A DNA stretch of 64,000 bases from Deltaproteobacteria bacterium. GTDB lineage: Bacteria; Desulfobacterota; GWC2-55-46; DRME01. The notes beneath the pieces are model-generated. The model was not told the origin of the DNA. It ran no database searches and was given only the letters and a program-made list of their open reading frames with translations. Made by a program: the position numbers and the translations under genes. Positions 1 to 27,419 of the stretch are shown in pieces. Every line of letters starts with the position of its first letter. The stretch's first letter is position 1. Where the stretch lies: positions 1,782 to 65,781 of the forward strand of contig DRME01000072.1 of NCBI GenBank assembly GCA_011375175.1, given 5' to 3'.

Positions 1-548
1 GCGGAAGCGGACCGGCGAGAGGCCGGCGGCGTAGCTCACGAGGTCCCACGGTATGTTCATGAGCCGCAGCATGAGGGTCGTTGAAAAACCCTTCTCTCTC
101 CACCGCTCGTCCATGCGCCGCACCAGGGCCTTTCGCCCCAGGTGTTTCGTAACGGCCTCGCGCAGCACGATGCGGGCCGCGTAGAAGCCCACGACCGTCG
201 AGGCCATACCCCCGAGGGCCACGTAGAGCGTGCCCATAAGAGGGCCGAAGAGCGCGCCCGCCACGACGGTCAGTCCCAGGGATGGGACGAAGAAGAGCAG
301 CGGCTTCACGGCGCACAGCCCGATGAAGACGAGGGGCGCGACGGCCCCCTGTCTCTCGACGAAGGCCCTTACCGAGGCGGCGTCCAGGCCCGGAAGGTTC
401 AGGGCTACCGCCAGGGCCGCGCCGACGGCCGCCGTCGATGCCAGGAGTTTCAGGGGACCGGCCCCGGCGCCGCGGCCCCACTGCGCCGAGTCCCGAGCTT
501 CGCCGCGGCTGTCCCCGCACGCCCAGGCGCTCCTTTCAGTAGAACTCA
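1..548 (-). CDS. DedA/TVP38/TMEM64-family membrane protein; N-terminal part only, the C-terminus lies beyond the window start
   Basis: Reverse-strand translation from the ATG at complement 546-548 gives MSSTERSAW...FVERQGAVAPLVFIGLCAVKPLLFFVPSLGLTVVAGALFGPLMGTLYVALGGMASTVVGFYAARIVLRE...MNIPWDLVSYAAGLSPVRF. Hydrophobic helices and the SNARE-associated/DedA signature are present. Not in the ORF track because no stop occurs in-window. Confidence 0.6.
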
Positions 549-1276
549 TCTTCCTCACCGGTGAGGACCGCCACGCCCTCGGGCGGCGTGAAGGTGAAGG
601 CGTCGGCCGGGAGAGGGGGGTTGAGCCGCACGTCGAAGAGCTCGGTCCTGGTGAGCGCCCCGCCCCTGCCCCGCAGCTCGATGAGCCGCGGCGCGCCGTC
701 GCCGCCGTAGCGTATGCACAGGGACTCGACGAACCGGCCGGCGAGCGCGCTCTTCGGCCTCAGCGAAAGGTCGCTGTATGCGCCGCCGTCGCGGACGGTC
801 ACGACGAACCTCTCTTCCAGGGCGCCGAGCGAGTGCGTCGCCCTGGAGAAGAACTCCATGGCGGTGCGCACGCCGGGGTCGTCCGCCACGGCCCGCTTGC
901 GGACCACGCCCTCCCCGGGGCTGTAGACCCAGAGGGTCCGGCCGTCCGAGACGACCACGAGCCTTTCGGGCTCCGTCACCTCCCAGCGCATGAGACCGGG
1001 ACGGCCGAGAAGGAGCGAGCCGCCGGAGCGTATCTCCCCTTTCAGCAGGACCGTGCGTTTGTACTGGCGGAACGACGCGGAGAGCGTCTCCACGGCCCCG
1101 GCGAGCCCCTGGAGCCGCTCGAGCTCGGCGGCCCGGCGCTCTCCCTCGAGCACTGGGCCTTCGCAGGGGCCGGGAGCCAGGCCATCGCCGCCGGCGTGGG
1201 CGGAGAGGGCCGTCGCCGCGGCGAACCCCATCGCGGCGAACCACACTGCGGCTAACCCCATCGCGGCGAGCCCCAT
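536..1276 (-). CDS. LolA-like outer-membrane lipoprotein carrier / lipoprotein-sorting protein with N-terminal signal peptide
   Basis: C-terminal 246 aa of minus ORF 536..2623: MGLAAMGLAAVWFAAMGFAAATALSAHA...LWVYSPGEGVV...FVVTVRDGGAYSDLSLRPKSALAGRFVESLCIRYGGDGAPRLIELRGRGGALTRTELFDVRLNPPL. This is LolA/LppX-like fold composition. The longer 695-aa ORF upstream is antisense to the radical SAM gene and is judged spurious. The start was chosen at the ATG at complement 1274-1276. Confidence 0.5.
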   Translation of the reverse strand: MGLAAMGLAAVWFAAMGFAAATALSAHAGGDGLAPGPCEGPVLEGERRAAELERLQGLAGAVETLSASFRQYKRTVLLKGEIRSGGSLLLGRPGLMRWEVTEPERLVVVSDGRTLWVYSPGEGVVRKRAVADDPGVRTAMEFFSRATHSLGALEERFVVTVRDGGAYSDLSLRPKSALAGRFVESLCIRYGGDGAPRLIELRGRGGALTRTELFDVRLNPPLPADAFTFTPPEGVAVLTGEEDEFY

Positions 1277-1353: not shown

Positions 1354-2937
1354 CTACGTCCGCCCGCCGGCGGCCTCGGCCCAGGCGCGCTCGACCTTGC
1401 GCCTGAAGGTGTGCCCGGAGTTGTAGGTGCAGAAGGGGTATAGCCTGCCGTTGGACGCCGAGTAGTGGACGGCGCAGCGGCGCACCCGCTCTATCGAGTA
1501 GTTGTAGTTGTCCATGAAGTGCATTCCGAGGATGAAGAAGGTCTTGTAGGTGTGGCCTTTGTGGGCCTCGTCCCACGAGTATTTCTTGTCGGTGTAGCCG
1601 TCGAGGGTGCGGAGGAACTTCCTGAACGTCAGCCCCTCCGGGGCCCTGTCGCCGTGAAAGTGTTTCTTGAGGATCGAGAGGAGCTTGAGGTCCGAGAAGA
1701 GCCTGAACCTGCGTTTCGACGCCCTGGCCGCAAGGGCGTCGATGTCGGCCAGGGCCTTCTTGTAGTCGAGAAAGCGCGTCACCGGCACGGCGCGCCGCCG
1801 GCGGTCCACGAAGAGGAGCGTGCCTATGACGCAGTGGTGGTGGCATGTGTGGTTTGTGAGGTCCCGGCCCGTGAGCGCCATGCCGAGCTTTACGAAGGGG
1901 GTAGCCGAGCTCACGGGGAACCAGTCGGTCCTCGGGTCGGTCAGTCCCGTCTGGAGGCTCACGTCCCTTGCCATGTCGCCCAGCGTGTAACGCTTTTCCA
2001 GGCGCTCGGCCTCGGGGTAGCGGCCCGTGAAGACGACGGGCTGGATCGAGATGCCCGTCACCACGTCGAGGTTCTCGAAGGCGAGCCTCAGGAGAGGTCC
2101 TATCTGGCCGTCGTTTACGCCCCTGACGATGGTGGGCACGAAGATTATGCGAAGCCCGGCCGCTCTCGCCCCCTCGATGGCGGCGAGTTTCCTGTCGAAG
2201 AGCCCGCGCCCCCGGATCTTCTCGTAGACGGCGTCGTCGGTGCCGTCGATCTGGAGATAGAGGTACTGGAGGCCCGCCTCCCTTGCCGCCGCGGCGAAGC
2301 CTTTGTCCGCGAAGCGCAGCCCGTTTGTGGCGCACTGGATGTGCGTGAAGCCGAGCTCGCGCGTCTTCCTTACGATGTCCATGAATCTGGGGTGCACCGT
2401 CGGCTCGCCGCCCGTGTACTGGACCGTCGCCGCCGGCGCGGGCCGCTGGGCGCGGAGCCTCTCGAGCATGCAGACGATCTCCTCGTAGGAGGGCTCGTAG
2501 GGATTGGTGTTCGAGTCGGCGAAGCAGACGTTGCAGCTCAGGTTGCAGCGGGCCGTGAGGTCCACGTTGGCGAGCGAGGTGTGGGTGGTGTGCATGTTGC
2601 AGATGCCGCACGACGAGGGACACCGCGCGGCGCCGCGAACCTGCGGGTTTTCAAGGCCCCGGCCGTCGCCGAAGTGCCAGTCCTCGAGCTCGAGGTAGAG
2701 CTCGGCGTCGGAGAAGACGAGGTCCCGGAACGTGCCGTGGTCGGGACAGGTCTTGGCGGACATGACGCGGCCGTCTTCGACGAAGTAGCGCGCCCTGACC
2801 ACCTTCAGGCACTCGGGGCATATGGAGTCCACCGTCTTGGGCAGCCCCCTTGTGAGCGGCGGGATGGGCGAGCCCGACAGCGTGCAGGCCACCCCCCCTG
2901 CGACAGTCTCCTCTGCGGGATGGATCGATTCGAGCAT
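1354..2937 (-). CDS. Multi-cluster radical SAM enzyme with an N-terminal rubredoxin/zinc-ribbon-like CxxC...CPxH motif; possibly a Tes / GDGT-MAS-like membrane-spanning lipid synthase homolog
   Basis: 527-aa ORF with diverse composition; the + strand ORF 1465..2955 is the GC-mirror artefact. Motifs: CPECLKV...TCPDHG at the N-terminus; CPSSCGIC followed by VDLTARCNLSCNVCFA (canonical radical SAM Cx3Cx2C preceded by a second Cx3Cx2C); a further Cys/His-rich C-terminus (HTCHHHC, YPFCTYN). The architecture matches multi-[4Fe-4S] radical SAM enzymes such as tetraether synthase. The family assignment is inference. Confidence 0.55.
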   Translation of the reverse strand: MLESIHPAEETVAGGVACTLSGSPIPPLTRGLPKTVDSICPECLKVVRARYFVEDGRVMSAKTCPDHGTFRDLVFSDAELYLELEDWHFGDGRGLENPQVRGAARCPSSCGICNMHTTHTSLANVDLTARCNLSCNVCFADSNTNPYEPSYEEIVCMLERLRAQRPAPAATVQYTGGEPTVHPRFMDIVRKTRELGFTHIQCATNGLRFADKGFAAAAREAGLQYLYLQIDGTDDAVYEKIRGRGLFDRKLAAIEGARAAGLRIIFVPTIVRGVNDGQIGPLLRLAFENLDVVTGISIQPVVFTGRYPEAERLEKRYTLGDMARDVSLQTGLTDPRTDWFPVSSATPFVKLGMALTGRDLTNHTCHHHCVIGTLLFVDRRRRAVPVTRFLDYKKALADIDALAARASKRRFRLFSDLKLLSILKKHFHGDRAPEGLTFRKFLRTLDGYTDKKYSWDEAHKGHTYKTFFILGMHFMDNYNYSIERVRRCAVHYSASNGRLYPFCTYNSGHTFRRKVERAWAEAAGGRT

Positions 2938-3085
2938 GGCAGTCTCCTTGGTTAGACGCCTTTATCAAGCCCGCTGATCTTATTAAAAAATACCCAGCTT
3001 GGCAAGGAAAAACATGGAACCGGCGCCGTCGCTTCGGGCCTTCGGACGGGAGGACTCAAGTTGCGGCCCTCACGATGCGATAAGC

Positions 3086-3480
3086 TTATATAATTGCCCT
3101 GAGGGAACCTTTTTGAAAAAAGGTTCCCTCAGACTCCCTCCAAAAACTTTCGACGCGAGTTGGTTTCCCCCTGTTTTGCCTGGCAAAACAGGGGGAAACC
3201 AACTCGTATCGAAAGTCTTTGAAGGGGGTCTGGGGGAAACTTTCTACAGAAAGTTTCCCCCAGAGCAATTAAAGGGGGCGTCCTGCCCGTGCCGGCCGTC
3301 TCGGGGGGGCTGTACCGGGGGGTTCGGGCCGCAAAGGCGTAAAAATCCCGCCTGGCGCGGGCCGAACCCCCGGTACAGCCGAACATCCGAATAACATACG
3401 ATGGGTCCGGGAGAAATGCGGGCCTGTGGCCCTTTTTCAGAAAGTCTCTCCCGGTGAAACAAATCAGAGCTTCCTATTGA
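3086..3480. repeat. MITE-like modular hairpin repeat element, copy 1 (family described in findings)
   Basis: Perfect palindrome cctgagggaacctttttgaaaaaaggttccctcag. Long imperfect inverted repeat ccaaaaactttcgacgcgagttggtttccccctgttttgcc / ggcaaaacagggggaaaccaactcgtatcgaaagtctttgaagg. Hairpin ggctgtaccggggggttcgggccgcaaaggcgtaaaaatcccgcctggcgcgggccgaacccccggtacagcc. Right end aatcagagcttcc. The same modules recur at 10 other sites. Confidence 0.8.
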
Positions 3481-3519
3481 TAATCATCGTCCGATATGGT
3501 AAGTAGCCTCCTGGCTCGC

Positions 3520-3700
3520 CGCCGTGGTGGGGAGGTGGGATGGTGTGCCTGAGTCTTTGAAGGGGGCGTCGTATGCCCGCGGCGGTTGCCTCGGGGAGGC
3601 CGTACCGGGGTTCGGGCCGCAAAGGCGTAAAGATCCCGCCTGGCGCGGGCCGAACCCCGGTACGGCCGAAGAACCGAGGCACGGACGCCTCAATCGGGGG
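3520..3700. repeat. Second partial copy of the same repeat family (ccgtaccggggttcgggccgcaaaggcgtaaagatcccgcctggcgcgggccgaaccccggtacggcc module)
   Basis: Shares the conserved cgggccgcaaaggcgtaaaaatcccgcctggcgcgggccgaa core and flanking ttgaaggggg with copy 1 and the other copies. Confidence 0.7.
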
Positions 3701-3773
3701 AGGGCCGCTCCAGCGAGGCGTTTTTTTGTGCCCGCGGCAGGCGGGGCATCCGTATCGAGTTGGCAGGTGGAAT

Positions 3774-5198
3774 ATGAGACGTCTTGTTCCGGCGTGGGCC
3801 GTGCTCTCTCTGGCGGCCGTTGTGCTGCTCTCCTGCGAGGCTGTGCCGCTTGGCGGGAGGGGCTCCTTCGACCCGGCGGCATCGAGGCTGCTCCTCTACA
3901 TCCACTCCACGTCGCCGTCGCCGCCGGAAGTGGCCTTCACCATAGAGTCCATAGAGATAGAGTCGGCCGACGGTGAGTGGGGGACCCTCGTCGACAGGAC
4001 GATAGACGTCGACTCCAGGGTGCTTGCGGCCGGTCAGCGTTTCCTTGGCGAGAGCTTCGTAAGGCCGGGCGCCTACAAGGCCGTGAGGCTCGTTGTGAGC
4101 CGGGCCTCCACGGGGGGCGAGGGCGAGAGGGTGAGCCTTGCGCTGCCCGAGCCCGAGGGCACCGTCGTCTTCACAAGGCAGCTCAAGCTCGAGCGCGGCG
4201 AGAGCACGGTCCTCTCCTTTGCCTGGGACGCCGACAGGTCGATTGAAAAGGGGTACCGCTTCTCGCCCGACATCGCCATGGAGGTCCAGGTCCACTCGGC
4301 CCGGGGGCTTCTGCTCTTCGTCTCCAACAGCGGCTCCAACTACCTTTCCATCATAGACCGCAGCCTCGAAAGGGTGGTCGGCGCCGTGACGGTGGGCTCG
4401 CGGCCCATGGGCATGGCCCTCAACGAGACGGCCAACCGTATCTACGTCGTGGGCCGCGGCTCCGGCGAGATCACCGTCGTCGACGCCGTCCACCTCCAGG
4501 TGCTCGACAGGATCGTCCTCACCACCGGCGTGGATCCCACGGACATAGCCTTCATGCCGGAGAGGGAGGGCGCGGCCGACGGGAAGCTCTACATCGTCAA
4601 CCGCATCAGCAACGACGTGACCGTCGTGAGCACAACCGCAAGGCGCGTCATCGGCGTCATCCCCGTGGGCATGAGGCCCGCCTTCATAGCATCGGACCCG
4701 GAGCGCCGCGAGCTCTACGTGGTCAACGAGAGGTCCAACGACCTGCACATCATAAGCGCCGTCGACGACCGCGTGGTGGCCGTCGTGCCCGTCGACCAGA
4801 ACCCCGGCGGGGTGGCGGTCAAGGACGGCTCGGTCTACGTCTTCTGCGAGGGCGCCAACAGGATAAACATAGTCTCGCCGTCGCAGCGCAAGGTGGTGAG
4901 CACGTTCACCGTCGTGGACCCGCCGCGACGGGGCGCAGTCGGCTTCGGCGGCAGGCTCTTCGTGGCCAACACGGCGGTCGATACCCTGACCTTCTTCAAC
5001 ACGCTCAACGTCCCCACCAGGACCATACCGGCAGGCCCCGGCCCCATCGCCTTCGCCGGCGACGAGCGCCGCAACCGCCTCTATATCTCCAACTTCAACG
5101 GCGACACCGTCTCCGTGGCCGACCCCTTCGCCGAAAGGCTCTTGAAGGAGCTTCGCGTCGGGGAAAATCCTTACGGGCTTCTCATCTTAGACAGGTGA
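3774..5198 (+). CDS. YVTN-family beta-propeller repeat lipoprotein (N-terminal DUF4382-like domain plus about six 40-residue YVTN blades)
   Basis: Start ATG 3774 (MRRLVPAWAVLSLAAVVLLSC, lipobox). Repeated blades: RIYVVGRGSGEITVVD, KLYIVNRISNDVTVVS, ELYVVNERSNDLHIIS, SVYVFCEGANRINIVS, RLFVANTAVDTLTFF, RLYISNFNGDTVSVAD. Stop TGA 5196-5198, one nt before the next gene's ATG. Confidence 0.75.
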   Translation: MRRLVPAWAVLSLAAVVLLSCEAVPLGGRGSFDPAASRLLLYIHSTSPSPPEVAFTIESIEIESADGEWGTLVDRTIDVDSRVLAAGQRFLGESFVRPGAYKAVRLVVSRASTGGEGERVSLALPEPEGTVVFTRQLKLERGESTVLSFAWDADRSIEKGYRFSPDIAMEVQVHSARGLLLFVSNSGSNYLSIIDRSLERVVGAVTVGSRPMGMALNETANRIYVVGRGSGEITVVDAVHLQVLDRIVLTTGVDPTDIAFMPEREGAADGKLYIVNRISNDVTVVSTTARRVIGVIPVGMRPAFIASDPERRELYVVNERSNDLHIISAVDDRVVAVVPVDQNPGGVAVKDGSVYVFCEGANRINIVSPSQRKVVSTFTVVDPPRRGAVGFGGRLFVANTAVDTLTFFNTLNVPTRTIPAGPGPIAFAGDERRNRLYISNFNGDTVSVADPFAERLLKELRVGENPYGLLILDR

Positions 5199-5199
5199 C

Positions 5200-7335
5200 A
5201 TGAGACGATCTCCCCTGGCAAAGCTCCTTGTGTCGCTGCCCTTGGCGGCGCTGTGGCTGTGGCCCCTTTCGGGCCGGGCCATGGCCGACGTCTACGCCCA
5301 GGCGGACCTCAACTACCAGAAGTCCAGGACCCGCAGCGCGACCCTCGACACCGAGCAGGTCCGCCTGGTCCAGGGCTACACCCTCGGCTTCAGCCGGGAC
5401 CTGACAAGGACCATAAGGCTCGCCGCCGACGTGCGGCTCACCGTCTCGGATGTGGACGGCGACAAGAGCGAGAGCCTCTTCCCGCAGCTCACCCTCGACT
5501 TCAGGCCGCCGAGCTTCTACTACTTCACCATGGGGTTCAGCAGGACCGAGACGGCTCCGTCCGAGGGGGACCGCCTCTCCACGTCGATCCTCAACGCCTC
5601 GCTCGTGCTCCCCTTCGAGAAGTGGCCCTCCGTCTCGCTCACCTACAACCGGTCGACCATGGAGGACTTCGCCGTCCCCAAGAAGACCGACTCCGTCTCG
5701 AGCATCCTCGGCGCCACGGCCGACTACAACACCACGCTCCTCGACACCGACGTGGCCCTGAGCTACTCCTTCAACAACACCGTCACCGAGGACAGGGTCT
5801 CGGACGTGGAGACCGAGTCGCCGACACACAACGTGACGGCCAACCTGGCGCGCTCGTTCTTCAGGAAGGCGCTCTGGGTGAGGGGCTACGCCGGCTATTA
5901 CACCCAGGAGACCAAGAGCACGAGCATCGGCACGCCCACGAGGTTCGAAGAGACGGCGAGCCCCGACTTCGGCTTCTACGTCCCCTTTGACGACACGCCC
6001 GCAGTGACGACGCTCGTCGACACCGGCGTCGTCACCGAGCTCACCGACAAGAACACGTCGAGCTCCGCCGGCATCGACCTCGATCAGCCCTACAGGAGCA
6101 TCGGTCTGAAGTTCACGCTGCCCCAGACGATCCACAAGCTCTACTACTACATCACCACCACCGACTACACCAACTTCCAGAACGTCTTCAGGAACTACGG
6201 CTGGTACGTCTACTGGAGCAACGACGGCACCAACTGGAAGGCGGTCACGGGCCTGACGATAAATTACGACTCGGCCTTCAAGCGCCTGGTCTTCAACTTC
6301 GTCGAGACGAGCGCCAAGTACTTCAAGGTCGTCAACACCCAGGTGCCGCTCGTCTCGCAGACCGTGTCGGCCACCGAGATCGAGGCCCTGAGATATATCC
6401 TCACGACGCCGAAGGAGACGATCACCTTCGGCACGGACAGGGACTTCGGCGGCTTCAGCCTCGCCTTCTCCCCGCGTTCGTGGTTCAACATCCGCTATGA
6501 CCTGTCGTTCGAACACTTCAGGCAGGACTCGAACGACCTTGAGAACACGTCGGTCACCCACGCCGTGAACTCAAGCCTCGTCGTCTCGCCGCGCTACCTC
6601 GTCATACAGTCGGGCCTGTCGCGCAACATCCTCGATTCCTCCCAGCGGCTCGCGGGCACCACAACCGCCACCTCCCTCGAGACGGAGAGCTCCAACTACA
6701 CGCTCACCCTCAGCTCCAACCCCCTCGACACCCTGAGCTCGAGCCTCACCTTCGGCCGCTTCGACTCCAAGGAGGACGGCGTAATGATATCGACAAACCG
6801 CAACGCCAACCTGGCCGCCAACATGGTCCTCTACTCCGGCATAGACCTCACTCTGACCTCGACGGTCACGAACATAGAGGAGTTCCGCTCCGACCAGACC
6901 ACCGATTCCGTCTCCCATCTCTACAACCTGCGGCTCACTCCCTGGGAGACGGTGACGGTCATCTTCAACGGCGGCCTCATCTCCAGCAGCGTGCACTCCA
7001 AGTCCGGCACCAGGGACTCGGACCTGAACTCTCTGGAGATGATGCTCTCCTACACGCCGACGCGCAAGCTCTACCTCTCCATGGTATGGACCATGGAGCC
7101 CACGGATGCGAAGATCGTCACGCTGGCGTGGCTGCCGACCGCCGCCTTCCAGCTCAACATGCGCTACGGCCTGACCGATACCACAACGAACGCGGGCCTG
7201 GACCTCAGCTGGAGCCCCATACGCAAGCTCTCCGTCTCGGTGGGCTACAACAGGGCGGAGACGGAGGATGTGAGCAGGAGCGTCGTCACCAAGGTGGACT
7301 CCTTTTACGCCAGGTTCTCGGCCCGCTTCGAATAG
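5200..7335 (+). CDS. Large (711 aa) outer-membrane beta-barrel protein of unknown function; candidate porin component
   Basis: Signal peptide MRRSPLAKLLVSLPLAALWLWPLSGRAMA. Amphipathic beta-strand pattern throughout (alternating hydrophobic residues rich in T/S/Y/N/D) and C-terminal strand ...VDSFYARFSARFE. No cysteines or CxxCH. The ATG is 1 nt after the upstream lipoprotein stop (translational coupling). Confidence 0.6.
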   Translation: MRRSPLAKLLVSLPLAALWLWPLSGRAMADVYAQADLNYQKSRTRSATLDTEQVRLVQGYTLGFSRDLTRTIRLAADVRLTVSDVDGDKSESLFPQLTLDFRPPSFYYFTMGFSRTETAPSEGDRLSTSILNASLVLPFEKWPSVSLTYNRSTMEDFAVPKKTDSVSSILGATADYNTTLLDTDVALSYSFNNTVTEDRVSDVETESPTHNVTANLARSFFRKALWVRGYAGYYTQETKSTSIGTPTRFEETASPDFGFYVPFDDTPAVTTLVDTGVVTELTDKNTSSSAGIDLDQPYRSIGLKFTLPQTIHKLYYYITTTDYTNFQNVFRNYGWYVYWSNDGTNWKAVTGLTINYDSAFKRLVFNFVETSAKYFKVVNTQVPLVSQTVSATEIEALRYILTTPKETITFGTDRDFGGFSLAFSPRSWFNIRYDLSFEHFRQDSNDLENTSVTHAVNSSLVVSPRYLVIQSGLSRNILDSSQRLAGTTTATSLETESSNYTLTLSSNPLDTLSSSLTFGRFDSKEDGVMISTNRNANLAANMVLYSGIDLTLTSTVTNIEEFRSDQTTDSVSHLYNLRLTPWETVTVIFNGGLISSSVHSKSGTRDSDLNSLEMMLSYTPTRKLYLSMVWTMEPTDAKIVTLAWLPTAAFQLNMRYGLTDTTTNAGLDLSWSPIRKLSVSVGYNRAETEDVSRSVVTKVDSFYARFSARFE

Positions 7336-7392
7336 AGGAGGACGCGGCGCCGGGCAAACGGAGGGAATGCGCCGGAAAAGGAAGAAAAGTGG

Positions 7393-7421
7393 TTGAACTG
7401 TCAGGGATTGAAAGGTATAAT
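7393..7421 (+). promoter_or_regulatory. Sigma70-like promoter (TTGAAC - 17 nt - TATAAT)
   Basis: TTGAAC at 7393-7398, a 17-nt spacer, TATAAT at 7416-7421, in an AT-rich island between the OMP gene and the lipoprotein gene starting at 7597. Confidence 0.5.
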
Positions 7422-7596
7422 GCCTATTGGTTAATTTTTTTTAATAAATCTCCGTACGAACCTGTTTTTCCGGAGGTCCCGGTCGGACCGGCCGGATTTG
7501 CGGGTTCATCGGCGTCTTTTGTCGCTCCCCCGTAGTACGATTGTTTTCGGTTTGAAAAGTGTAACATATAAAACCATTGAAAGCCATGAGGGGATA

Positions 7597-8184
7597 ATGT
7601 ATAATTTACTGAGAAGACACATCGTTTGCGGTCTTGTGCTTGCGGCGCTGCTGGCAGGGGGTTGCGCGCCCACATCGCTCATATACATAAGCCCTTCGGC
7701 CAACTTCTCCTACATCAAGAAGGTGGCCGTGCTGCCCTTCAACAACCTGAGCGAGGACCGTTACGCCGGAGAGCGGGTGCGCAGCATCGTCACCGTCGAC
7801 CTCATGAGCCGCCAGGTCTTCGAGGTCATGGAGCAGGGCGAGGTCTCCAAGGTCCTGAGCATCATCTTCAGGGAAGAGGGCTTCGAAGAGGGGAGGGCGG
7901 TGCAGGTCGACAAGGAGACGCTCAACCTCATAGAGCAGCGTCTCGGCGTGCAGGCCGTCATCCTCGGAAGCGTCGACGAGTACTCGGGAGGACGCTACGG
8001 CGGCAACACGGTCGTCTCCATCTCGCTGAGGATGCTCGACACGAGCTCGGGGATCATCCTCTGGCAGGTGAGCGTAACGGAGCTGGGCGGCAGCATATGG
8101 CGCAAGCTCATCGGCCTGGAGGACATAGACAAGAGCGTCCTTACCCAGCGGGCCGTGAAGAGGGCACTGGACACGCTGGTCTGA
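7597..8184 (+). CDS. Lipoprotein with TolB-N/LpoB/CsgG-like domain (paralog 1 of 3)
   Basis: ATG 7597 with SD gagggga upstream. MYNLLRRHIVCGLVLAALLAGGC lipobox. Core KKVAVLPFNNLSEDRYAGERVRSIVTVDLMS...VQAVILGSVDEYSGG...ISLRMLDTSSGIILWQ. Paralogous to the N-terminus of 8346..10745 and to 12574..13143. Confidence 0.65.
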   Translation: MYNLLRRHIVCGLVLAALLAGGCAPTSLIYISPSANFSYIKKVAVLPFNNLSEDRYAGERVRSIVTVDLMSRQVFEVMEQGEVSKVLSIIFREEGFEEGRAVQVDKETLNLIEQRLGVQAVILGSVDEYSGGRYGGNTVVSISLRMLDTSSGIILWQVSVTELGGSIWRKLIGLEDIDKSVLTQRAVKRALDTLV

Positions 8185-8345
8185 GGCCGGAGCGCAGAGT
8201 GCGGTTCTTGCCGGCTCCGGGCGGGGGCGGCCCCCGCGAACAAGGGTGTGACGGGAGGCGGTAGGGGAGCGGCTTGCGCCGGGATCGCCCGGGACCCGCT
8301 GCCGTCGCCGGGAAGAGGCCGCCAAGCGGCTAAGGATGATTCGTT

Positions 8346-10745
8346 ATGAAAGGCATCCTCCAAATAGCTGTCGGTTTGCCTGTGACCCGTGAAGGTTCCC
8401 CGCCCGGCCGCCTGCCGCGCAGTCTCGCGGCGACACTGGTGGCCGCAGCGGTCCTTCTCTTCACGGCGGCGGACCTGTCCGCCCCGCCGAGCGCATGGGC
8501 GTCGGTGTCGGCCCGTCACGGCGACGAGGTTTCGTCGCAGAGAGTCGAGATCGACAGCATCGCCATACTCCCCTTCGAGAACCTCACCGACTACCCCGGC
8601 GCTTCGAAGCTCGTGGCGGACATGGTCGCTCAGGAGATCGGGCGCAGGGGCTGGCGCGTGGTCTCCGGCGCCAGGCTCGTCGACGAGTACCTGGCCAAGA
8701 GACGCATCCGCTACACCGGCGCCATCACGAGGACCAGCGTGCGCGAGATGCGCAAGATCTTCGGCATCGACGCCGTGCTGCTCGGATCGATAGACCTCTT
8801 TTCCGCAGAGGGGCGCGACTCGGCGGTGAGCATCAACATGAGGCTCGTCAACACCGTCGACGGCTCCATCATGTGGGCCGATAACCTCGCCTACGCCGGG
8901 CTCGACTTCCAGGGCATACTCGGCCTCGGGACGATCACCTCGCCGGAAACACTCTCGGAGAGGATCGTGCACCGCCTCGTCGCCGGTCTGCCCGACAGCT
9001 ACGCCGTCGAGCTCTCGGAGCTGAGTCCCTACGAGATAGAGAAGATATACCTGAACCCCAAGGTGGCCAAGGGGGGGCAGCCCATCGACCTGCGCGTGAG
9101 GTTTCTGAGCCTCAAGGGCGAGCTGCCCGCGGCGGTCACGGCCGTCATCGACGGCCGCCAGACCGAGCTGCGCCGCTCTCGCGGCGGCTACTACGACGCC
9201 GAGATACCGGCCCCCCGGCGGGAGGGGCTCTATCCGGTGACCATAATCGCCCGCCCCAGGGACTCCCATAAGGCCTTCGTCTTCGACGCCGCCGCCCAGG
9301 TGAGCGTGGACACAACTCCGCCCGACGTGGACGTCTCCCTCTCCAGGACGATCTTCGCCCCCAGAAGGCGCGGCTACGTCATCTTCACGCCCAGGCTCAA
9401 CAACTTCGACATCGTCGACGAATGGAAGATGGAGATACTCGACGCCGACGGCCTCGTCATCAGAAACGACAGGGGCTTCGGCAGTCTCCCCAAGGGGCTC
9501 GTCTGGAAGGGCGAGACCGACAAGAGGCGCATGGTCGACGACGGCACCTACACCTACAGGTTCATCATCAAGGACCCGGCGGGCAACACGAGCACCGTCG
9601 ACGGCAAGCTCCAGGTCAAGAACAAGCCGCCCGACATCAAGGTCGACGTCGACAAGGTGAGGGGGCCCGTCAGGGCGAAGGACAAGCTCATATTCGGCTT
9701 CAACTACGAGGGGCGCGAGAGGGTCAGGTCCTGGCGGCTCACCATAAACGACAAGGACGGCCGGGTGATCGACATCATCGACGGCGAGGGCCCCCTGCCC
9801 GAGCGGCTCGACTATCCCCTCAAGGCCGGGCTCGACGTGGAGAGGATGACCTGCTCCGTATCGGTCGTCGACAGCGACGGCAACGTCACAAAGCTCTCCA
9901 ACGTGTGGATAGACCTCGACAGAGGCGAAGAAGAGGGCGGGCTCATCTTCTCCTTCAGGTACGACCGCAGCGAGGAGATAAGCGCCTGGAGACTCGCCAT
10001 ACTCGACGCCTCGGGCGCCGAAATCGACGTCATCGACGGCGAGGGCCCCCTGCCCGAGCGCCTCGAATACCCCCTGAAGGAGGGGGTGGACGCAAGCGGG
10101 CTCTCCTTCGTGGTGACGGCCGTCGACAAGGTCGGCAACCCCATGAGGCTCACCAACATCAAGGTTGAGGACCGGGTCTCCGACAAGCTCATCTTCTCGT
10201 TCAACTACGACACGAGCGAGCCCATAGAGTCGTGGCGGATATCCATACTCGGCGAGGACGGCGAGGTCCTCGACGTCATCGACGGCGAGGGGCCCCTGCC
10301 CCGGCAAATCGAGTACCCCGTGGCTCCGGGCGTTGACGCGACGAACCTCGCCTATTCGGTGACGGCCACAGACAGGGCCGGCAACCCCTTCAAGCTCGAC
10401 AAGGTCAAGGTCGACGTGGAGGAGCTGCGCAAGTTCGTCAGGGACAAGCTCATCTTCTCCTTCGACTACGACCCGCAGGAGAAGATAGAGCGCTGGCAGA
10501 TCGCCATCCAGGACCTCGACGGCCGGATACTCGACATAATAGACGGAAAAGGAGCGCTTCCATCGCGGGTCGAGTACCCCGTGGGCCGGGACTACGACCT
10601 CAGCAAGATGGCCTTTGTCGTGACGGCCACCGACAAGGCCGGCAATCCCTTCAAGTATTCCAAGGCGCTGCCCACGATCCTCTCACGCAAGCGACCCTTT
10701 GCCGAACTGCGCGGCGACGGCGGTTTCATGATGAAGGATTTCTGA
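8346..10745 (+). CDS. Large lipoprotein: N-terminal TolB-N/LpoB-like domain (paralog 2) followed by 5 tandem FlgD-Ig-like (about 80 aa) repeats
   Basis: IDSIAILPFENLTDYPGASKLVADMVAQEIGRRGWRVV...AVLLGSIDLFSAEG...INMRLVNTVDGSIMWA. Then repeats of KLIFSFNYD...W(R/Q)(L/I)xIxDxDGxxIDxIDGEGPLPxRxEYPxxxGxD...V(T/S)AxDKAGNPxKL, four clear copies plus one degenerate copy containing DGTYTYRFIIKDPAGN. Confidence 0.65.
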   Translation: MKGILQIAVGLPVTREGSPPGRLPRSLAATLVAAAVLLFTAADLSAPPSAWASVSARHGDEVSSQRVEIDSIAILPFENLTDYPGASKLVADMVAQEIGRRGWRVVSGARLVDEYLAKRRIRYTGAITRTSVREMRKIFGIDAVLLGSIDLFSAEGRDSAVSINMRLVNTVDGSIMWADNLAYAGLDFQGILGLGTITSPETLSERIVHRLVAGLPDSYAVELSELSPYEIEKIYLNPKVAKGGQPIDLRVRFLSLKGELPAAVTAVIDGRQTELRRSRGGYYDAEIPAPRREGLYPVTIIARPRDSHKAFVFDAAAQVSVDTTPPDVDVSLSRTIFAPRRRGYVIFTPRLNNFDIVDEWKMEILDADGLVIRNDRGFGSLPKGLVWKGETDKRRMVDDGTYTYRFIIKDPAGNTSTVDGKLQVKNKPPDIKVDVDKVRGPVRAKDKLIFGFNYEGRERVRSWRLTINDKDGRVIDIIDGEGPLPERLDYPLKAGLDVERMTCSVSVVDSDGNVTKLSNVWIDLDRGEEEGGLIFSFRYDRSEEISAWRLAILDASGAEIDVIDGEGPLPERLEYPLKEGVDASGLSFVVTAVDKVGNPMRLTNIKVEDRVSDKLIFSFNYDTSEPIESWRISILGEDGEVLDVIDGEGPLPRQIEYPVAPGVDATNLAYSVTATDRAGNPFKLDKVKVDVEELRKFVRDKLIFSFDYDPQEKIERWQIAIQDLDGRILDIIDGKGALPSRVEYPVGRDYDLSKMAFVVTATDKAGNPFKYSKALPTILSRKRPFAELRGDGGFMMKDF

Positions 10746-10749
10746 TTAG

Positions 10750-11964
10750 ATGAAAAGAAGAGCGTCGAAGTTCACTTTCAAGGTTCTTCCCTTCACCGTC
10801 ATCCTCTCCATCTTTGCCATGTCACCAGTGATAAGCGGCGACGGGCTGGCGCAGCCCAGGGGCGGCGACTGCCGCCGCTGCCATGCCGGTCCCGAAGCGC
10901 GCAAGCGCGGTCTCGTCGACATCTACGGCAGGATCGCCTCGTACCGCTTCCCCCATACGCCGGTCATCCAGGGCAACTGCACGATCTGCCACCGCGTCAG
11001 CACCTCTCCGTCGAGACGCTTCGGCGCCGCGGCGGGCGGGACGAAGACGATCAAGGGACCCGGCGGGCTGAGAAGACGCTACATACCCGTGGCCGCCGAC
11101 AAGGCCGGCTCGACCTACAGGGTGGACCTCACCATCGAGGACGAGCGCGGCCGCGTCATCGGTAAGGCCGGCTTCGACCTCGACCCCCGGTCCGTGAGCA
11201 GCTCGCTTAAGGACGACGGCCGGGAGCCCAGGGCGACGGACGTCAAAGTGGTGGGGGTGAAGCAGGCCGTCTTCATCGAGTCGGTGATCGACTGGAAGAC
11301 CGACAAGGCCGCGACCTCGTACATCGAGTACGGCCCCCGCGACGCCGTGGTCCTGGAGAGATCGCCCGCGCCGCAGGTCTACTCCAAGGAGCACAGGGCC
11401 GTCCTCAAGGGCCTCAAGGCCGAGGTCTACCGCTTCCGCGTCGTCTCCACCGACATCTTCGGCAACAGGGGCGTCTCCAAGGAGTACATCCTCGACGCCA
11501 GAAAGCCCAGGCGCCTGCGGGAGAAGAGAAACCCCGGCGGCGGGTTGGAGAAGCCCTCGCTTCGAGCGGAAGACTTCGTCAAGGTCCCGGCAACGGGCCT
11601 GATCCACCTGCTCGTCAGGACCAGGAGACCGTCGCGGGCCGTCGTGCGCGTCTCGGAGGCGGGCGCCCCGGCCGCGGGCCCGGGAGCCGCTGCCGGAGGA
11701 CACGGCGCGACGGGGAGCAGGAGCCGATACGTCCAGATCGACGCCTGCCTCAAGTGCCACTCCGACGGCGTATCGCACCCCGTGGCCGTAAGAAGCGACG
11801 GCAGAAAGACGCGCATCCCGCCGAACCTGCCGACCATCGAGCACGGCCTCCTGACGTGTGTAACCTGCCACTATCCTCACGGCGGCGACGCGAGGCACTT
11901 TTCGAGGCTCGACAAGAACAGGGACCTCTGCGTAGAATGCCACATCGGCGAGCCTTTTATGTGA
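10750..11964 (+). CDS. Secreted multiheme c-type cytochrome (5 CxxCH)
   Basis: Signal peptide MKRRASKFTFKVLPFTVILSIFAMSPVISG. Heme motifs CRRCH, CTICH, CLKCH, CVTCH, CVECH. The central region is beta-rich (Ig/FN3-like). Confidence 0.75.
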   Translation: MKRRASKFTFKVLPFTVILSIFAMSPVISGDGLAQPRGGDCRRCHAGPEARKRGLVDIYGRIASYRFPHTPVIQGNCTICHRVSTSPSRRFGAAAGGTKTIKGPGGLRRRYIPVAADKAGSTYRVDLTIEDERGRVIGKAGFDLDPRSVSSSLKDDGREPRATDVKVVGVKQAVFIESVIDWKTDKAATSYIEYGPRDAVVLERSPAPQVYSKEHRAVLKGLKAEVYRFRVVSTDIFGNRGVSKEYILDARKPRRLREKRNPGGGLEKPSLRAEDFVKVPATGLIHLLVRTRRPSRAVVRVSEAGAPAAGPGAAAGGHGATGSRSRYVQIDACLKCHSDGVSHPVAVRSDGRKTRIPPNLPTIEHGLLTCVTCHYPHGGDARHFSRLDKNRDLCVECHIGEPFM

Positions 11965-12013
11965 CACCACGATGGCGGAGCCGTGTCCACTTCAATAAAA
12001 GGCGGTATGGCAA

Positions 12014-12577
12014 ATGGAAGACAGGGTTAAAGACAGAAGGCGCATGTTGAACTTCAGCATAAAGCGTGCCATGCAACTGAGGATCTTCGCCAGGATAATG
12101 ATCATAGTGCTCTGCTCCGTGGCCGCCACATCCATCGTCTTCTATCTCTACAGCTACCAGGAGATATCGGGCTCCTACAGGCAGTTCCACGTGCAGGCCA
12201 GGAACTTCCTCGACTACCTCCTGCCGGTCATCGGCATATCGCTTGTGCTCGGCGTCGCGGCGGCCGCGGTGCTGACGCTCTTTTTCCCGCGCAACATAGC
12301 GGGACCGGTCTACAGGCTGGAAAAGGACATAAAGGAGAGGCTGGCCAGGGGGGACCTGACCGTCAGGTTCAGACTCCGCGAGGGCGACGAACTCACCGAT
12401 CTCGTGACGGCCCTCAACGAGGTGGTCGACAACTTCAGGGAGAGGCTCGCCGAGGTGAAGTCGGCGGCGAGGGAACTGGAGGGGCTGCGCGCCGGAGGCG
12501 GCGGAGCGGAGACTGACACCAGGCTCGCCGACGTGGAGAGCCGCCTGAGGGAGACACTGAAAGAATTCAAGCTATGA
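12014..12577 (+). CDS. Small membrane protein with two TM helices and a HAMP-like coiled-coil domain
   Basis: IFARIMIIVLCSVAATSIVFYLY and LLPVIGISLVLGVAAAAVLTLFF helices, followed by NIAGPVYRLEKDIKERLARGDLTVRFRLREGDELTDLVTALNEVVDNF (HAMP signature). The start could alternatively be the ATG near 12044. Confidence 0.55.
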   Translation: MEDRVKDRRRMLNFSIKRAMQLRIFARIMIIVLCSVAATSIVFYLYSYQEISGSYRQFHVQARNFLDYLLPVIGISLVLGVAAAAVLTLFFPRNIAGPVYRLEKDIKERLARGDLTVRFRLREGDELTDLVTALNEVVDNFRERLAEVKSAARELEGLRAGGGGAETDTRLADVESRLRETLKEFKL

Positions 12578-13143
12578 GACGCGTATTCTCCGCCGCCTGC
12601 CTCGCCGTCCTCGTCGTCTCCCTGCTTTCAGTCTCCGCCGGCTGCTACGCCCGCCGGGCAAGGGTGCCGCGGCCGGACCTCTCGGCCATACACAAGATAG
12701 CCGTCATCCCCTTCAGCAATATAAGCGGCAGGCGCGACGCCGGCCGCATAGTCTCCAACATATTCATCACCGAGCTCTTCAAGACCGGCCTCTTCGACGT
12801 GGAAGAGCCCGGCAACGTCATGCAGTTTCTCATTCAGGAACGCATAGACAGCCTCGGCGAGATGGAGCTGGACAGGGTGCGGATACTCGGCAAGCGGCTC
12901 AACGTGGACGCCGTCATAGTGGGCCAGGTCGAGGAGTTCGAGGACGCCTCCAAGAGTTCGTCGGTGCCCGTGGTCTCGCTCTCGGCGAGGATGATCGACT
13001 CCGCCACGGGCAGGATCGTCTGGTCGCACCACGTCAAGCGCCGGGGCGACGACTTCATAATAATCTTCGACTTCGGCAAGATAAGGACCGTGACCGGTCT
13101 TGCCGGAACCGTCGTGAGAGAGATGATAGAGACCCTCATTTGA
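12574..13143 (+). CDS. Lipoprotein with TolB-N/LpoB/CsgG-like domain (paralog 3 of 3)
   Basis: MRRVFSAACLAVLVVSLLSVSAGC lipobox. HKIAVIPFSNISGRRDAGRIVSNIFITELFK...VDAVIVGQVEEFED...SLSARMIDSATGRIVWSH. The ATGA start/stop overlap with the upstream HAMP gene. Confidence 0.65.
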   Translation: MRRVFSAACLAVLVVSLLSVSAGCYARRARVPRPDLSAIHKIAVIPFSNISGRRDAGRIVSNIFITELFKTGLFDVEEPGNVMQFLIQERIDSLGEMELDRVRILGKRLNVDAVIVGQVEEFEDASKSSSVPVVSLSARMIDSATGRIVWSHHVKRRGDDFIIIFDFGKIRTVTGLAGTVVREMIETLI

Positions 13144-17016: not shown

Positions 17017-17039
17017 GGGCGCAGTCGATGGTTAAGAGG

Positions 17040-18299
17040 ATGGTATACGCAAAGCGACGGAGACGGCCCGCGGCGGGCGCCCTAACGGCCCTCGCCGGCG
17101 CCGCCGCCCTGCTCGCCGCCTCGGTCCTCGGGCCGGCCGCGGCGGAGGCGGGCGAGGTGAGTCACAGGGTGACAAAGCAGCTCTGTGCCGAGTGCCACGA
17201 CACGTCACGCGCCCTGGCGGCCAAGCCCTACCAGCACAGGCCCGTCGAGCTCGGCAAGTGCACGGCCTGCCACAACCCCCATGCCTCCAGGCACGCCGGG
17301 CTGCTCAGCGAGGAGGGCGGCAGGCTCTGCTTCAACTGCCACGAGCAGGACGAGGGCTTCAAGGGCGCGGTGCTCCACGCCCCCTACGCCTCGGGCCGCT
17401 GTCTCGAGTGTCACGAGGCCCACGTCTCCGACAACGCCGGACTCCTGAAGGTGGCCGGCGGCAAGGGCTGCTACCTCTGCCACAAGCGCGATGAGATAGT
17501 GGCGGGGGCCAACGTCCACCCGGAGGTGAAAAAGGACCACTGTACGGCGTGCCACAACCCGCACTCTTCCGACAACGTGGGACTTCTCACCGCCGACAGG
17601 AACTCGGTGTGCGCCCGCTGCCACTACAAGGACGGCGCGCCCGTCATCCCATGCCCCTACGAGGTGGCCGGCACCGACTGCCTCGGCTGTCACAGCCCCC
17701 ACTCGTCGGACAGGAGAGCCATCCTCAGGGCCTCGCTCCACGACCCCTTCGAGAAGAAGGACTGCGCCGCCTGCCACAGCGGAGCCGACGGCGGCGAGGT
17801 CAGGCCCGGCATAGCGGTGTGCCTGAAGTGCCACGAAAAGGTCATGGAAGGCTTCAACAAGCTGGCGAGCCACCTCATGCCGGCTCCCGGCGGCGGCAAC
17901 GCCTGCTCCAACTGCCACAACCCCCACGGCTCGGACCGCATGGCGCTGCTCAGGGACAAGGAGTCGCGCATCTGCTATAGATGTCACAGCGACGCCAGGC
18001 AGTTCGTCGCCGACAGCCTCTACGTCCATCCCGACCTCGAAAAGTGCACCGAGTGCCACGCCTCGCACGGCTCCAACGAGCCGTTCCTCATGGCCCGCGG
18101 GGCCGAGACCTGCTCGTCGTCGCGGTGCCACGCCACACAGGGCACTTTCACCCATCCCATAGGAGAGGACGTCATCGATCCCCGCTCGGGAGGCGCCATG
18201 GACTGCAACACCTGCCACAACCCCATGGGCTCGCCGGAGGAGACGATACTGCGCGACGAGAAGGACAGGGGGCTGTGCATACAGTGTCACCAGGTTTAA
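17040..18299 (+). CDS. Multiheme c-type cytochrome (about 15 CxxCH)
   Basis: SD aagagg before ATG 17040; alternative ATGs at 17028 and 16998. Signal peptide ALTALAGAAALLAASVLGPAAAEA. Motifs CAECH CTACH CFNCH CLECH CYLCH CTACH CARCH CLGCH CAACH CLKCH CSNCH CYRCH CTECH CNTCH CIQCH. Confidence 0.8.
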   Translation: MVYAKRRRRPAAGALTALAGAAALLAASVLGPAAAEAGEVSHRVTKQLCAECHDTSRALAAKPYQHRPVELGKCTACHNPHASRHAGLLSEEGGRLCFNCHEQDEGFKGAVLHAPYASGRCLECHEAHVSDNAGLLKVAGGKGCYLCHKRDEIVAGANVHPEVKKDHCTACHNPHSSDNVGLLTADRNSVCARCHYKDGAPVIPCPYEVAGTDCLGCHSPHSSDRRAILRASLHDPFEKKDCAACHSGADGGEVRPGIAVCLKCHEKVMEGFNKLASHLMPAPGGGNACSNCHNPHGSDRMALLRDKESRICYRCHSDARQFVADSLYVHPDLEKCTECHASHGSNEPFLMARGAETCSSSRCHATQGTFTHPIGEDVIDPRSGGAMDCNTCHNPMGSPEETILRDEKDRGLCIQCHQV

Positions 18300-18318
18300 G
18301 AGAGAGGGAGTGAGTTTC

Positions 18319-19305
18319 ATGGCTTCTGGGATTTACAGGTCGGCGCCGGCGGGAGTGAGCGAGCGCGCCCCGGCTGCTTCGGTGCGGGCTGTGCTGGGCC
18401 GGAGCCTCTTCGCCGCGGCCGCCGTTGCGGTCTCCCTTGTTGCGCCGCAGGCCGTATCGTCGCAGGACGAGGGGACCGAGATGCTGGCCGTCATCAGCGG
18501 CAACGAGATGATAGGGCGGCTCAAGAACCCCTCGGCCCTCTTCTTCGACGAGGTGAAAAAGCGCATATACGTCGCCGACACGGGCAACAGGCGTCTCGTC
18601 TCCTTCGACAACGAGTACAAGTACCTGGCCGAGCTCTACCTCGAGGAATTCGACCTCCCTTCCGGCATCGTCAAGGACAGCGCCGGTCTCTTCTACGTGG
18701 TGGACAGCGGCAAGGCCGCCATCCTCAGGATAGACGTGCGCAACAACGTGGTCGAGCCCATCGAACCAAGCGGCGTGCCCGAGGCCGGAGAGCCCTTCAT
18801 CCCCGGCAGGATCGCCATCGACGGCAGCGACACACTCTACGTCGTCGACAAGCTCAACAAGAGGATACTGGCCTTGGACGGCGACGGCGTCTTCGTGGCC
18901 CAGTACACCGTGCCGGGCGACGAGAGGCTCACCGGTTTCGCCGACGTGAGGGTGGCCGAAAACGGCGAGGTCTACGCCATCGACACGCTCAGCGGCACCA
19001 TCTATATATTCGACGGCAGTGGCGAGGTGGTCAAGAGTTTTTCCAGGCGCGGCACGGGACGGGGCATGTTGCGCTTCCCCACGAGCATCGCCGTGGACCG
19101 CAACGGCCATATCTACGTCGCCGACCGCCACGGCGGCATGGTCCTCGTCTACGACCGCAGCGGCATATTCCTGCGCGCCATTTCAAGGCCCGGCTTCCGC
19201 GAGGGCGAGCTCTCCTACCCCTTCTACATCTACCTCGACGGGGAGGGCAGGCTCTATACGATAGACGTAACGAGGATACAGGTCTTCAAGGGCGAGAAGG
19301 GATGA
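18319..19305 (+). CDS. Secreted NHL-repeat six-bladed beta-propeller protein
   Basis: ATG 18319 with SD gggagtga. Signal peptide. Blades: RIYVADTGNRRLVSFD, LFYVVDSGKAAILRID, TLYVVDKLNKRILALD, EVYAIDTLSGTIYIFD, HIYVADRHGGMVLVYD, RLYTIDVTRIQVF. Confidence 0.75.
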   Translation: MASGIYRSAPAGVSERAPAASVRAVLGRSLFAAAAVAVSLVAPQAVSSQDEGTEMLAVISGNEMIGRLKNPSALFFDEVKKRIYVADTGNRRLVSFDNEYKYLAELYLEEFDLPSGIVKDSAGLFYVVDSGKAAILRIDVRNNVVEPIEPSGVPEAGEPFIPGRIAIDGSDTLYVVDKLNKRILALDGDGVFVAQYTVPGDERLTGFADVRVAENGEVYAIDTLSGTIYIFDGSGEVVKSFSRRGTGRGMLRFPTSIAVDRNGHIYVADRHGGMVLVYDRSGIFLRAISRPGFREGELSYPFYIYLDGEGRLYTIDVTRIQVFKGEKG

Positions 19306-19311
19306 CCCCCC

Positions 19312-26363: not shown

Positions 26364-26371
26364 GGCGGGCC

Positions 26372-27352: not shown

Positions 27353-27419
27353 GGCGCCATCGCCGCGGCCGGTTGCCGGCGCGCGGTCAGCAGGAAAGAC
27401 ACCACGGAGCGGACAAGAC

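Follow-up and report, generated by a model that had tools for sequence, protein, structure and literature searches.

A Tes/GDGT-MAS-family radical SAM protein at the head of a twelve-gene operon in a Deltaproteobacteria bacterium

The DNA analysed here, referred to as the window, is a stretch of 64,000 nucleotides from a Deltaproteobacteria bacterium (contig DRME01000072.1 of GenBank assembly GCA_011375175.1), which carries near its start, on the minus strand, the gene for a 527-aa radical S-adenosylmethionine (SAM) protein. This protein belongs to the family of the tetraether lipid synthase Tes, also named GDGT-MAS (GDGT, glycerol dialkyl glycerol tetraether), and its gene is the first of an operon whose content is in part conserved beside Tes in related bacteria. 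It is probably a functional bacterial member of the family, with a substrate that is most likely a fatty-acid-derived lipid of the bacterial envelope and not archaeol.

Family membership, fold and metal sites

An initial annotation of this gene had ascribed features of Tes/GDGT-MAS to its product and proposed profile searches as a check; these searches, the alignment to a crystallised GDGT-MAS and the predicted fold all support the claim. The protein scored 470.8 bits (E 4.5e-141) on the NCBIfam equivalog model NF045702, 'tetraether lipid synthase Tes', which has a cut-off of 450, with residues 37–520 placed on positions 3–483 of the 486 in the profile. The second-best NCBIfam model, NF045646 (TrsS), was matched with 324.4 bits against a cut-off of 490, and models of the PqqE, SPASM and MoaA types with 40–73 bits. 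Pfam searches placed a Radical_SAM domain at residues 127–285 (E 2.9e-24) and a Zn_ribbon_HMPTM domain at the N-terminus (E 7e-17). The best sequence match in the PDB was GDGT-MAS of Methanocaldococcus jannaschii (MJ0619; 7tol_A/7TOM), found across residues 28–517 with E 6.9e-109 and 38% identity, followed by SkfB at E 9e-11. An AlphaFold2 model built with 24 homologs (predicted local distance difference test, pLDDT, 76.6; predicted TM-score, pTM, 0.83) was matched by Foldseek to 7TOM/7TOL with TM-scores of 0.76–0.81 over approximately 495 columns, so that the four-domain fold is covered, with the runner-up MoaA reaching 0.34 on the radical SAM core alone. The open reading frame (ORF) has a third-position GC of 0.91, as in the real genes of this window of 64% GC, and the long antisense ORFs lying over it are the usual artefacts of high-GC DNA.

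In GDGT-MAS a mononuclear iron site (C9X2C12X20C33X2H36) and an N-terminal [4Fe-4S] cluster bound by C73/C77/C80 and a histidine accompany the radical SAM cluster and a C-terminal [4Fe-4S] cluster with a labile Met439 (PMC9433317), and Tyr459 is strictly conserved among the archaeal homologues (PMC9433317). Every Cys/His motif listed in the initial annotation was located within the gene and could be related to one of these sites (Table 1). The CPEC...CPDHG motif, taken there for a rubredoxin-like site, has a CX2CX20CX2H spacing identical to that of the GDGT-MAS iron site. The paired CX3CX2C motifs were also borne out, with the first corresponding to the N-terminal auxiliary cluster and the second (C131–C138) being the canonical radical SAM motif, since it falls inside the Pfam Radical_SAM domain. 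The Cys/His-rich stretches near the C-terminus hold the aligned ligands of the C-terminal cluster, with C369, M472, C488, Y492 and C503 aligning in HMMER with Cys338, Met439, Cys455, Tyr459 and Cys470 of MJ0619; the assignment of C369/C488/C503 as ligands comes from this alignment together with conservation. The four ligand sets, like the residues equivalent to Met439 and Tyr459, are all invariant in an alignment of 24 bacterial homologs, 57–71% identical to the window protein. Also invariant are H116 and H119, which come after C113 in the protein and are candidate histidine ligands. There are two differences from MJ0619, namely a glycine (GMHFMD) where the archaeal enzyme has Cys438 (SCMHFMD), and an additional cysteine, Cys365, which is invariant in the bacterial clade of the window protein.

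A search of the Tes family (E ≤ 1e-30) gave 501 clusters at 50% identity, and 320 relatives were found among species-representative genomes, the best 80 of these 320 being all bacterial. All relatives are metagenome-assembled genomes (MAGs). The closest group, at 57–70% identity, comprises Thermodesulfobacteriota/'Deltaproteobacteria', Dissulfurispiraceae and other Nitrospirota, and NC10/Methylomirabilis, with homologs from Acidobacteriota following at 53–56%. A neighbour-joining tree rooted on MJ0619, its sole archaeal sequence, separated two clades: clade A, in which the window protein is sister to two Thermodesulfobacteriota MAGs, and the acidobacterial clade B. Clade A stands further from the archaeal enzyme, with 37–39.5% identity to MJ0619 versus 43–45% for clade B. 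Several homologs are named as a pterin methylase by JGI, and some close relatives as 'tetraether lipid synthase Tes' by NCBI.

The operon and its conserved gene context

The Tes-like gene is the first of 12 co-directional genes with intergenic gaps of −14 to 130 nt, which are followed by a histidine kinase and a response regulator. Most of this operon lies past the window start and was read from an 87,308-bp contig (L088) of a hydrothermal-vent metagenome (ENA ERZ940665), on which an identical protein is encoded and to which the window corresponds, in reverse complement, at approximately positions 4139–68138; genes were examined over record positions 2060–87308. The NCBI entry for the identical protein is titled 'MAG TPA: radical SAM protein [Deltaproteobacteria bacterium]'. 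The envelope-type neighbours named in the initial annotation, a LolA-like and a DedA-like gene, were both confirmed. The DedA gene overlaps the LolA-like gene by 14 nt and has the first 183 of its 250 codons in the window. The LolA-like protein scored 93.1 bits on TIGR00547 (lolA), below the cut-off of 112, and weakly (33.8 bits, cut-off 125) on the model for 'flexirubin biosynthesis/transport protein LolA2'. Judged from its sequence, it is a putative carrier with a LolA-type domain and not a canonical lipoprotein chaperone by the criterion of NCBI.

Further along, the operon encodes two ketosynthases (KS) and a chain-length-factor (CLF)-like homolog, which are regarded as additional copies because a housekeeping fatty-acid synthesis operon is present elsewhere in the window. 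No NCBIfam link to a named lipid enzyme was found for the B12-binding radical SAM protein, with the BchE, HpnJ and 'lipid biosynthesis B12/rSAM' models scoring far below their cut-offs, and PDB searches with this protein, the ATP-grasp enzyme and the deacetylase returned generic family matches and nothing more. The 92-aa ORF was considered as an acyl carrier protein and rejected, there being no PP-binding match and two hydrophobic helices; relatives have, at this position, hydrophobic ORFs of similarly small size (66 and 82 aa). It should also be noted that the ENA call of the operon methyltransferase starts within a repeat copy, giving 414 aa versus 371 aa at NCBI, where the accession of this methyltransferase is HHL38997.1. 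Approximately 40 nt upstream of the Tes start lies a sigma-70-like promoter match, recognised by consensus alone, which is the sole one in 3.7 kb versus 0.1 expected from shuffles.

Eighty-three related loci were searched with the operon proteins and with profiles made from them. Within clade A, the LolA-like gene stands directly downstream of Tes on the same strand in 33 of the 35 loci with at least 800 nt of downstream sequence, and a PF03279 acyltransferase gene (LpxL/PatA-like) directly upstream on the same strand in 36 of the 39 with at least 900 nt of upstream sequence. The best models for this acyltransferase were phosphatidylinositol mannoside (PIM) acyltransferase (108–127 bits) and lipid A lauroyl acyltransferases, all under their cut-offs. 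Among the 25 clade A loci with flanks of at least 8 kb, genes for an ATP-grasp enzyme (23/25), a B12-radical SAM enzyme (21/25), a CE4 deacetylase (20/25) and DedA (7/25) were found. Neither a LolA-like nor an LpxL-like gene was detected within 10 kb of Tes at any of the 43 acidobacterial loci, and the neighbours there are unrelated. No report of the acyltransferase-Tes-LolA-like synteny was found in the searchable literature, the coverage of which is incomplete and does not amount to proof of absence.

Annotated examples of the related loci contain, in addition, a SPASM radical SAM gene and as many as three B12-radical SAM genes. In the Nitrospirota and NC10 relatives the SPASM-type gene lies between the LolA-like/DedA and the B12-radical SAM genes (L085 13234–13992, L087 12397–13365, with equivalents in L006–L024); it is absent from the window operon. 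Bacterial gms has been reported to cluster with tes (PMC11214058), and this SPASM gene may be a bacterial homolog of Gms, the enzyme that makes glycerol monoalkyl glycerol tetraethers (GMGTs). Loci of the NC10 type (L087 7566–9011; L019–L024, L052) have an extra B12-radical SAM gene upstream of the acyltransferase gene, with the hopanoid C-3 methylase HpnR as best match (238 bits versus a cut-off of 650), and this gene probably encodes another lipid C-methylase.

The window locus is an exception within clade A, in that dispersed palindromic repeats occupy the upstream space in place of the acyltransferase gene. Two intergenic repeat types were distinguished, a palindrome of approximately 180 nt and a hairpin of approximately 150 nt with the core GGGGTTCGGGCCGC...GCGGGCCGAACCCC, the copies being 85–97% identical. 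Further copies lie at window positions 20140–20510, 21891–22188, 29436–29524, 31985–32026, 41771–41960 and 53145–53342, and outside the window at L088 9947–10108, 12548–12700 and 15836–16032. These scattered intergenic repeats look like repetitive extragenic palindromic (REP) or miniature inverted-repeat transposable element (MITE) sequences. A run of secreted or lipoprotein-like genes (window 3573–13143) is transcribed divergently from Tes and has no counterparts beside Tes in the related loci. It encodes a protein with DUF4382, another of 711 aa that matches no family, several small proteins with CsgG/FlgO/GNA1162-like N-terminal domains and a 789-aa protein with approximately five tandem repeats of some 95 aa (KLIFSFNYD...W.L.I.D.DG...D.IDGEGPLP).

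Table 1. Features of the Tes-like gene, its operon and surroundings, with positions numbered from the first nucleotide of the window.
Feature	Position in window	Strand	Remark
Tes/GDGT-MAS-family radical SAM protein gene (operon gene 1)	1354..2937	-	ATG start, 527 aa
Rubredoxin-like mononuclear iron site C40-x2-C43-x20-C64-x2-H67 (CPEC...CPDH)	2737..2820	-	GDGT-MAS spacing, Zn_ribbon_HMPTM
N-terminal auxiliary [4Fe-4S] CX3CX2C, C106/C110/C113 (CPSSCGIC)	2599..2622	-	Aligns with GDGT-MAS C73/C77/C80
Radical SAM CX3CX2C, C131/C135/C138 (CNLSCNVC)	2524..2547	-	Inside Pfam Radical_SAM; aligns with MJ0619 CNLNCPIC
C-terminal auxiliary [4Fe-4S] cluster region	1429..1833	-	HMMER alignment to MJ0619
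C369	1831-1833	-	C-terminal region residue
M472	1522-1524	-	C-terminal region residue
C488	1474-1476	-	C-terminal region residue
Y492	1462-1464	-	C-terminal region residue
C503	1429-1431	-	C-terminal region residue
HTCHHHC	1831-1851	-	Residues 363-369
YPFCTYN	1420-1440	-	Residues 500-506
Operon gene 2, LolA-like periplasmic carrier	536..1276	-	246 aa, hydrophobic N-terminus ending AHA; Pfam LolA E 7e-20
Operon gene 3, DedA/VTT membrane protein	1..549	-	Pfam VTT_dom E 3.7e-22
Operon gene 4, B12-binding radical SAM			DUF4070
Operon gene 5, ATP-grasp			
Operon gene 6, FlgO/CsgG-like periplasmic protein			
Operon gene 7, CE4 deacetylase			Carries DUF3473; scores 273 bits (cut-off 276) on 'XrtA system polysaccharide deacetylase' model
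Operon gene 8, two-helix membrane protein			92 aa
Operon gene 9, FabF-like KS			Cys-His-His triad intact
Operon gene 10, CLF-like KS homolog			No active-site Cys
Operon gene 11, class I methyltransferase			
Operon gene 12, second KS			
Sigma-70-like promoter match TTGCCA-17-TAAGAT	2977..3005	-	9/12; consensus match alone
Palindromic REP/MITE-like repeat copies	3091..3677	.	Repeat analysis; upstream of Tes
Housekeeping fatty-acid synthesis operon plsX-fabH-fabD-fabG-acpP-fabF	25323-31406		

Proposed function and alternative explanations

The window protein most likely couples the tails of bacterial envelope lipids, as judged by analogy with GDGT-MAS. Crystals of GDGT-MAS contained two phosphatidic acids of Escherichia coli in two lipid pockets, with no direct hydrogen bonds to the head groups (PMC9433317), and it is on account of these ligands that the fold is regarded as able to accept ester-linked bacterial lipids. 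A substrate derived from bacterial fatty acids is suggested because, in addition to this binding, the host has a type II fatty-acid synthesis (FAS II) system and no Pfam match to the archaeal ether-lipid families (UbiA, GGGPS, G1P-dehydrogenase and GGR-type) was seen among the genes called on the examined part of the contig.

In the mechanism that we infer by carrying over that of GDGT-MAS, the C131/C135/C138 cluster would cleave SAM and the resulting 5'-deoxyadenosyl radical would remove a hydrogen at the terminal carbon of one saturated lipid tail. A sulfur of the C-terminal [4Fe-4S] cluster (C369/C488/C503, with M472 labile) would then carry the lipid radical, and a second SAM-derived radical formed on a second tail would attack the carbon bound there, giving a Csp3–Csp3 bond. 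In GDGT-MAS, the sites of the rubredoxin-like iron and of the N-terminal cluster are found at the protein surface (PMC9433317). The product would be a membrane-spanning lipid, of the diabolic-acid or branched GDGT (brGDGT) type, or a macrocyclic lipid. Of the operon partners, the KS, the CLF-like protein, the second KS and the methyltransferase could provide the chains or shape them, the B12-radical SAM enzyme could tailor them, and the CE4 deacetylase and ATP-grasp enzyme could modify the head group. DedA and the LolA-like carrier would move the product over the inner membrane and through the periplasm, and the presence of both proteins suggests that the product does leave the inner membrane.

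A number of points weigh against tail coupling of bacterial envelope lipids by this protein. Activity has been demonstrated for none of the bacterial Tes homologs and was still unconfirmed in 2025 (PMC11868695), and the known producers of diabolic and iso-diabolic acids are mostly without Tes and use Mss (PMC13159169). Among the contig genes an ether-forming enzyme (Ger/PlsA or Elb) was not seen, the 12 operon genes include no acyl carrier protein, ketoreductase or dehydratase, and the LpxL-like acyltransferase of the relatives was found neither upstream of Tes nor elsewhere on the contig (tblastn E > 0.3). The NF045702 cut-off was also passed narrowly, with the window protein being the lowest-scoring homolog tested: MJ0619 scored 737 bits, the acidobacterial homologs 574–578 and the clade A relatives 475–506. 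In view of these scores and of the divergence of clade A, the window protein is taken as a peripheral yet qualifying member of Tes.

Several alternatives were weighed against this reading. In one of them the same radical C–C coupling of tails would act on something other than an ordinary glycerophospholipid, either the acyl chains on a glycolipid or on a lipid-A-like lipid of the outer membrane, or long alkyl chains from the operon KS, CLF-like protein and second KS, with a macrocyclic or leaflet-bridging lipid of the outer membrane as product. In its favour are the near-constant place of the PIM/lipid A lauroyl-like acyltransferase before Tes (36/39 loci), the periplasmic LolA-like protein after Tes (33/35 loci), the CE4 deacetylase and ATP-grasp enzyme, which suggest chemistry on a sugar or amine head group, and two extra KS with a Cys-less CLF-like protein, present despite the housekeeping system. 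This alternative is nevertheless unlikely, as the acyltransferase scores under every curated cut-off and its gene is absent from the window locus. Lipid A is exported in well-studied bacteria by the Lpt and not the Lol pathway, which further argues against a lipid-A-like substrate. The pockets of GDGT-MAS, moreover, bind glycerophospholipids (PMC9433317).

A true isoprenoid GDGT or macrocyclic-archaeol synthase, working on archaeal-type ether lipids made by the bacterial host, would also pass the NF045702 cut-off with all catalytic features of GDGT-MAS conserved, as observed here. It is very improbable given the FAS II operon of the host, operon partners that are KS enzymes of the fatty-acid type and the lack of Pfam matches to archaeal ether-lipid families in the examined contig parts; furthermore, isoprenoid GDGTs are not known from any bacterium (PMC8941075). 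Older annotation of MJ0619 as a pterin methylase (7,8-dihydro-6-hydroxymethylpterin dimethyltransferase) persists in the JGI names of homologs and in the Pfam name Zn_ribbon_HMPTM, and such a function can be given little credence for the window protein, whose gene context is all envelope or lipid related. That activity was not reproduced by Lloyd et al., and the long hydrophobic lipid tunnel is unsuited to a pterin (PMC9433317). There is barely any probability that the protein belongs to a sister family, such as the TrsS radical SAM (seleno)proteins or peptide maturases, and only resembles Tes. The TrsS model is indeed second best, but at 324 bits it does not reach the cut-off of 490, and its best stretch extends over residues 35–331 and no more; the cross-match is ascribed to kinship of the two families because MJ0619 itself scores 421 bits on this model. 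The initial annotation had held that a closer match to another radical SAM subfamily would speak against Tes, and no such match emerged: SPASM/PqqE-type models gave 40–55 bits, and the C-terminal cluster domain aligns with that of GDGT-MAS.

Wider contig, significance and comparison with known systems

Aside from the Tes operon, the contig holds two similar modules of multihaem c-type cytochromes with an NHL-repeat beta-propeller protein (window 17028–20124 and 35940–40601). More multihaem cytochromes are encoded at 10750–11964 and, as a 908-aa protein, on the contig outside the window. Extracellular or periplasmic electron transfer is a possibility for this organism. A PEP-CTERM/exosortase extracellular polysaccharide (EPS) locus takes up window positions 49154–64000, with the exosortase at 56167–57780. 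It comprises EpsH and EpsI, two FemAB-like acetyltransferases, a CE4 deacetylase, a sulfatase, an APH-like kinase, a Wzx-type flippase and two SPASM radical SAM genes. Parts of this locus (50–56 kb and 62–64 kb) have a GC content of 0.49–0.54 versus approximately 0.64 elsewhere, which suggests that they are acquired DNA. Rfam and tRNA scans of the window gave no matches.

Bacterial Tes homologs have been known since 2022, when they were proposed as brGDGT enzymes (PMC8941075, PMC9433317), and the window gene adds to these. The part worth following up is the acyltransferase-Tes-LolA-like arrangement, limited to the non-acidobacterial clade. It is tentatively suggested that clade A may define an undescribed pathway of anaerobic diderms (Thermodesulfobacteriota, Nitrospirota, Methylomirabilota and others), by which a tail-coupled lipid, multiply methylated or bridged, would be exported via the periplasm to the outer membrane. 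The core of such a pathway might consist of the LpxL/PatA-like acyltransferase, Tes and the LolA-like carrier, and, with the same reserve, between one and three B12-radical SAM enzymes, in many cases a SPASM radical SAM enzyme, ATP-grasp, CE4 deacetylase and extra ketosynthases could be counted as its accompaniment. If this holds true, the pathway would contribute branched or 'overly branched' GDGT-like lipids to anoxic and hydrothermal settings, and would do so independently of the acidobacterial Tes homologs and of Mss.

Branched GDGTs serve widely as proxies of temperature and pH, with their producers and biosynthesis still unsettled, and there are two candidate enzymes for the coupling of tails, one of them being the bacterial Tes homologs. 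A single locus leaves that picture unchanged. In one large non-acidobacterial clade, however, the Tes gene belongs to a conserved operon that also encodes a periplasmic carrier, an acyltransferase and B12-radical SAM tailoring enzymes, which provides a defined gene set for heterologous expression. The context suggests that the product may be a lipid found in the outer membrane of anaerobes, in which case a wider range of organisms and settings would contribute GDGT-like lipids.

When set beside known systems, the window protein has the four domains and the length of MJ0619 (7TOL, 7TOM), with the difference that its host is a bacterium with FAS II. TrsS (NF045646) has the N-terminal zinc ribbon, the auxiliary cluster and the radical SAM core in common with it, whereas the C-terminal half fits Tes instead. 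As regards gene context, aryl-polyene and flexirubin clusters and rhizobial clusters for very-long-chain lipid A likewise group KS, CLF-like, methyltransferase, LpxL-family acyltransferase and LolA-like carrier genes, and build a special lipid for the outer membrane; they have acyl carrier protein, ketoreductase and dehydratase genes of their own and, to our knowledge, no Tes-like or B12-radical SAM enzymes, and are regarded as a lead only. The archaeal Tes gene MA_1486 adjoins genes for a ferredoxin and GGR (PMC8941075), in contrast to the operon with LolA-like and DedA genes found here. The acidobacterial homologs (Ca. Koribacter, Ca. Solibacter, Edaphobacter), proposed by Zeng et al. in 2022 as synthases of brGDGTs and iso-diabolic acid (PMC8941075), are of the same family but of a separate clade, and are closer to MJ0619 than the window protein is, with higher Tes profile scores. 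For Mss of Thermotoga and Thermoanaerobacter (Sahonero-Canavesi et al. 2022), likewise a radical SAM enzyme, the joining of two bacterial fatty-acid tails into diabolic acids has been demonstrated, in Thermotoga and in Clostridia (PMC13159169), and Mss would be a functional analogue of the activity proposed for the window protein. It is described as only remotely related to Tes (PMC13159169), and the published criterion for homology to Mss is E ≤ 1e-50 with at least 30% identity. In archaea, the products of Tes are tailored by B12-radical SAM enzymes (Grs, Gmm, Cgm/Pgm, Ted) and a SPASM enzyme (Gms) (PMC11214058), and the B12-radical SAM and SPASM neighbours of bacterial Tes form a parallel to this set.

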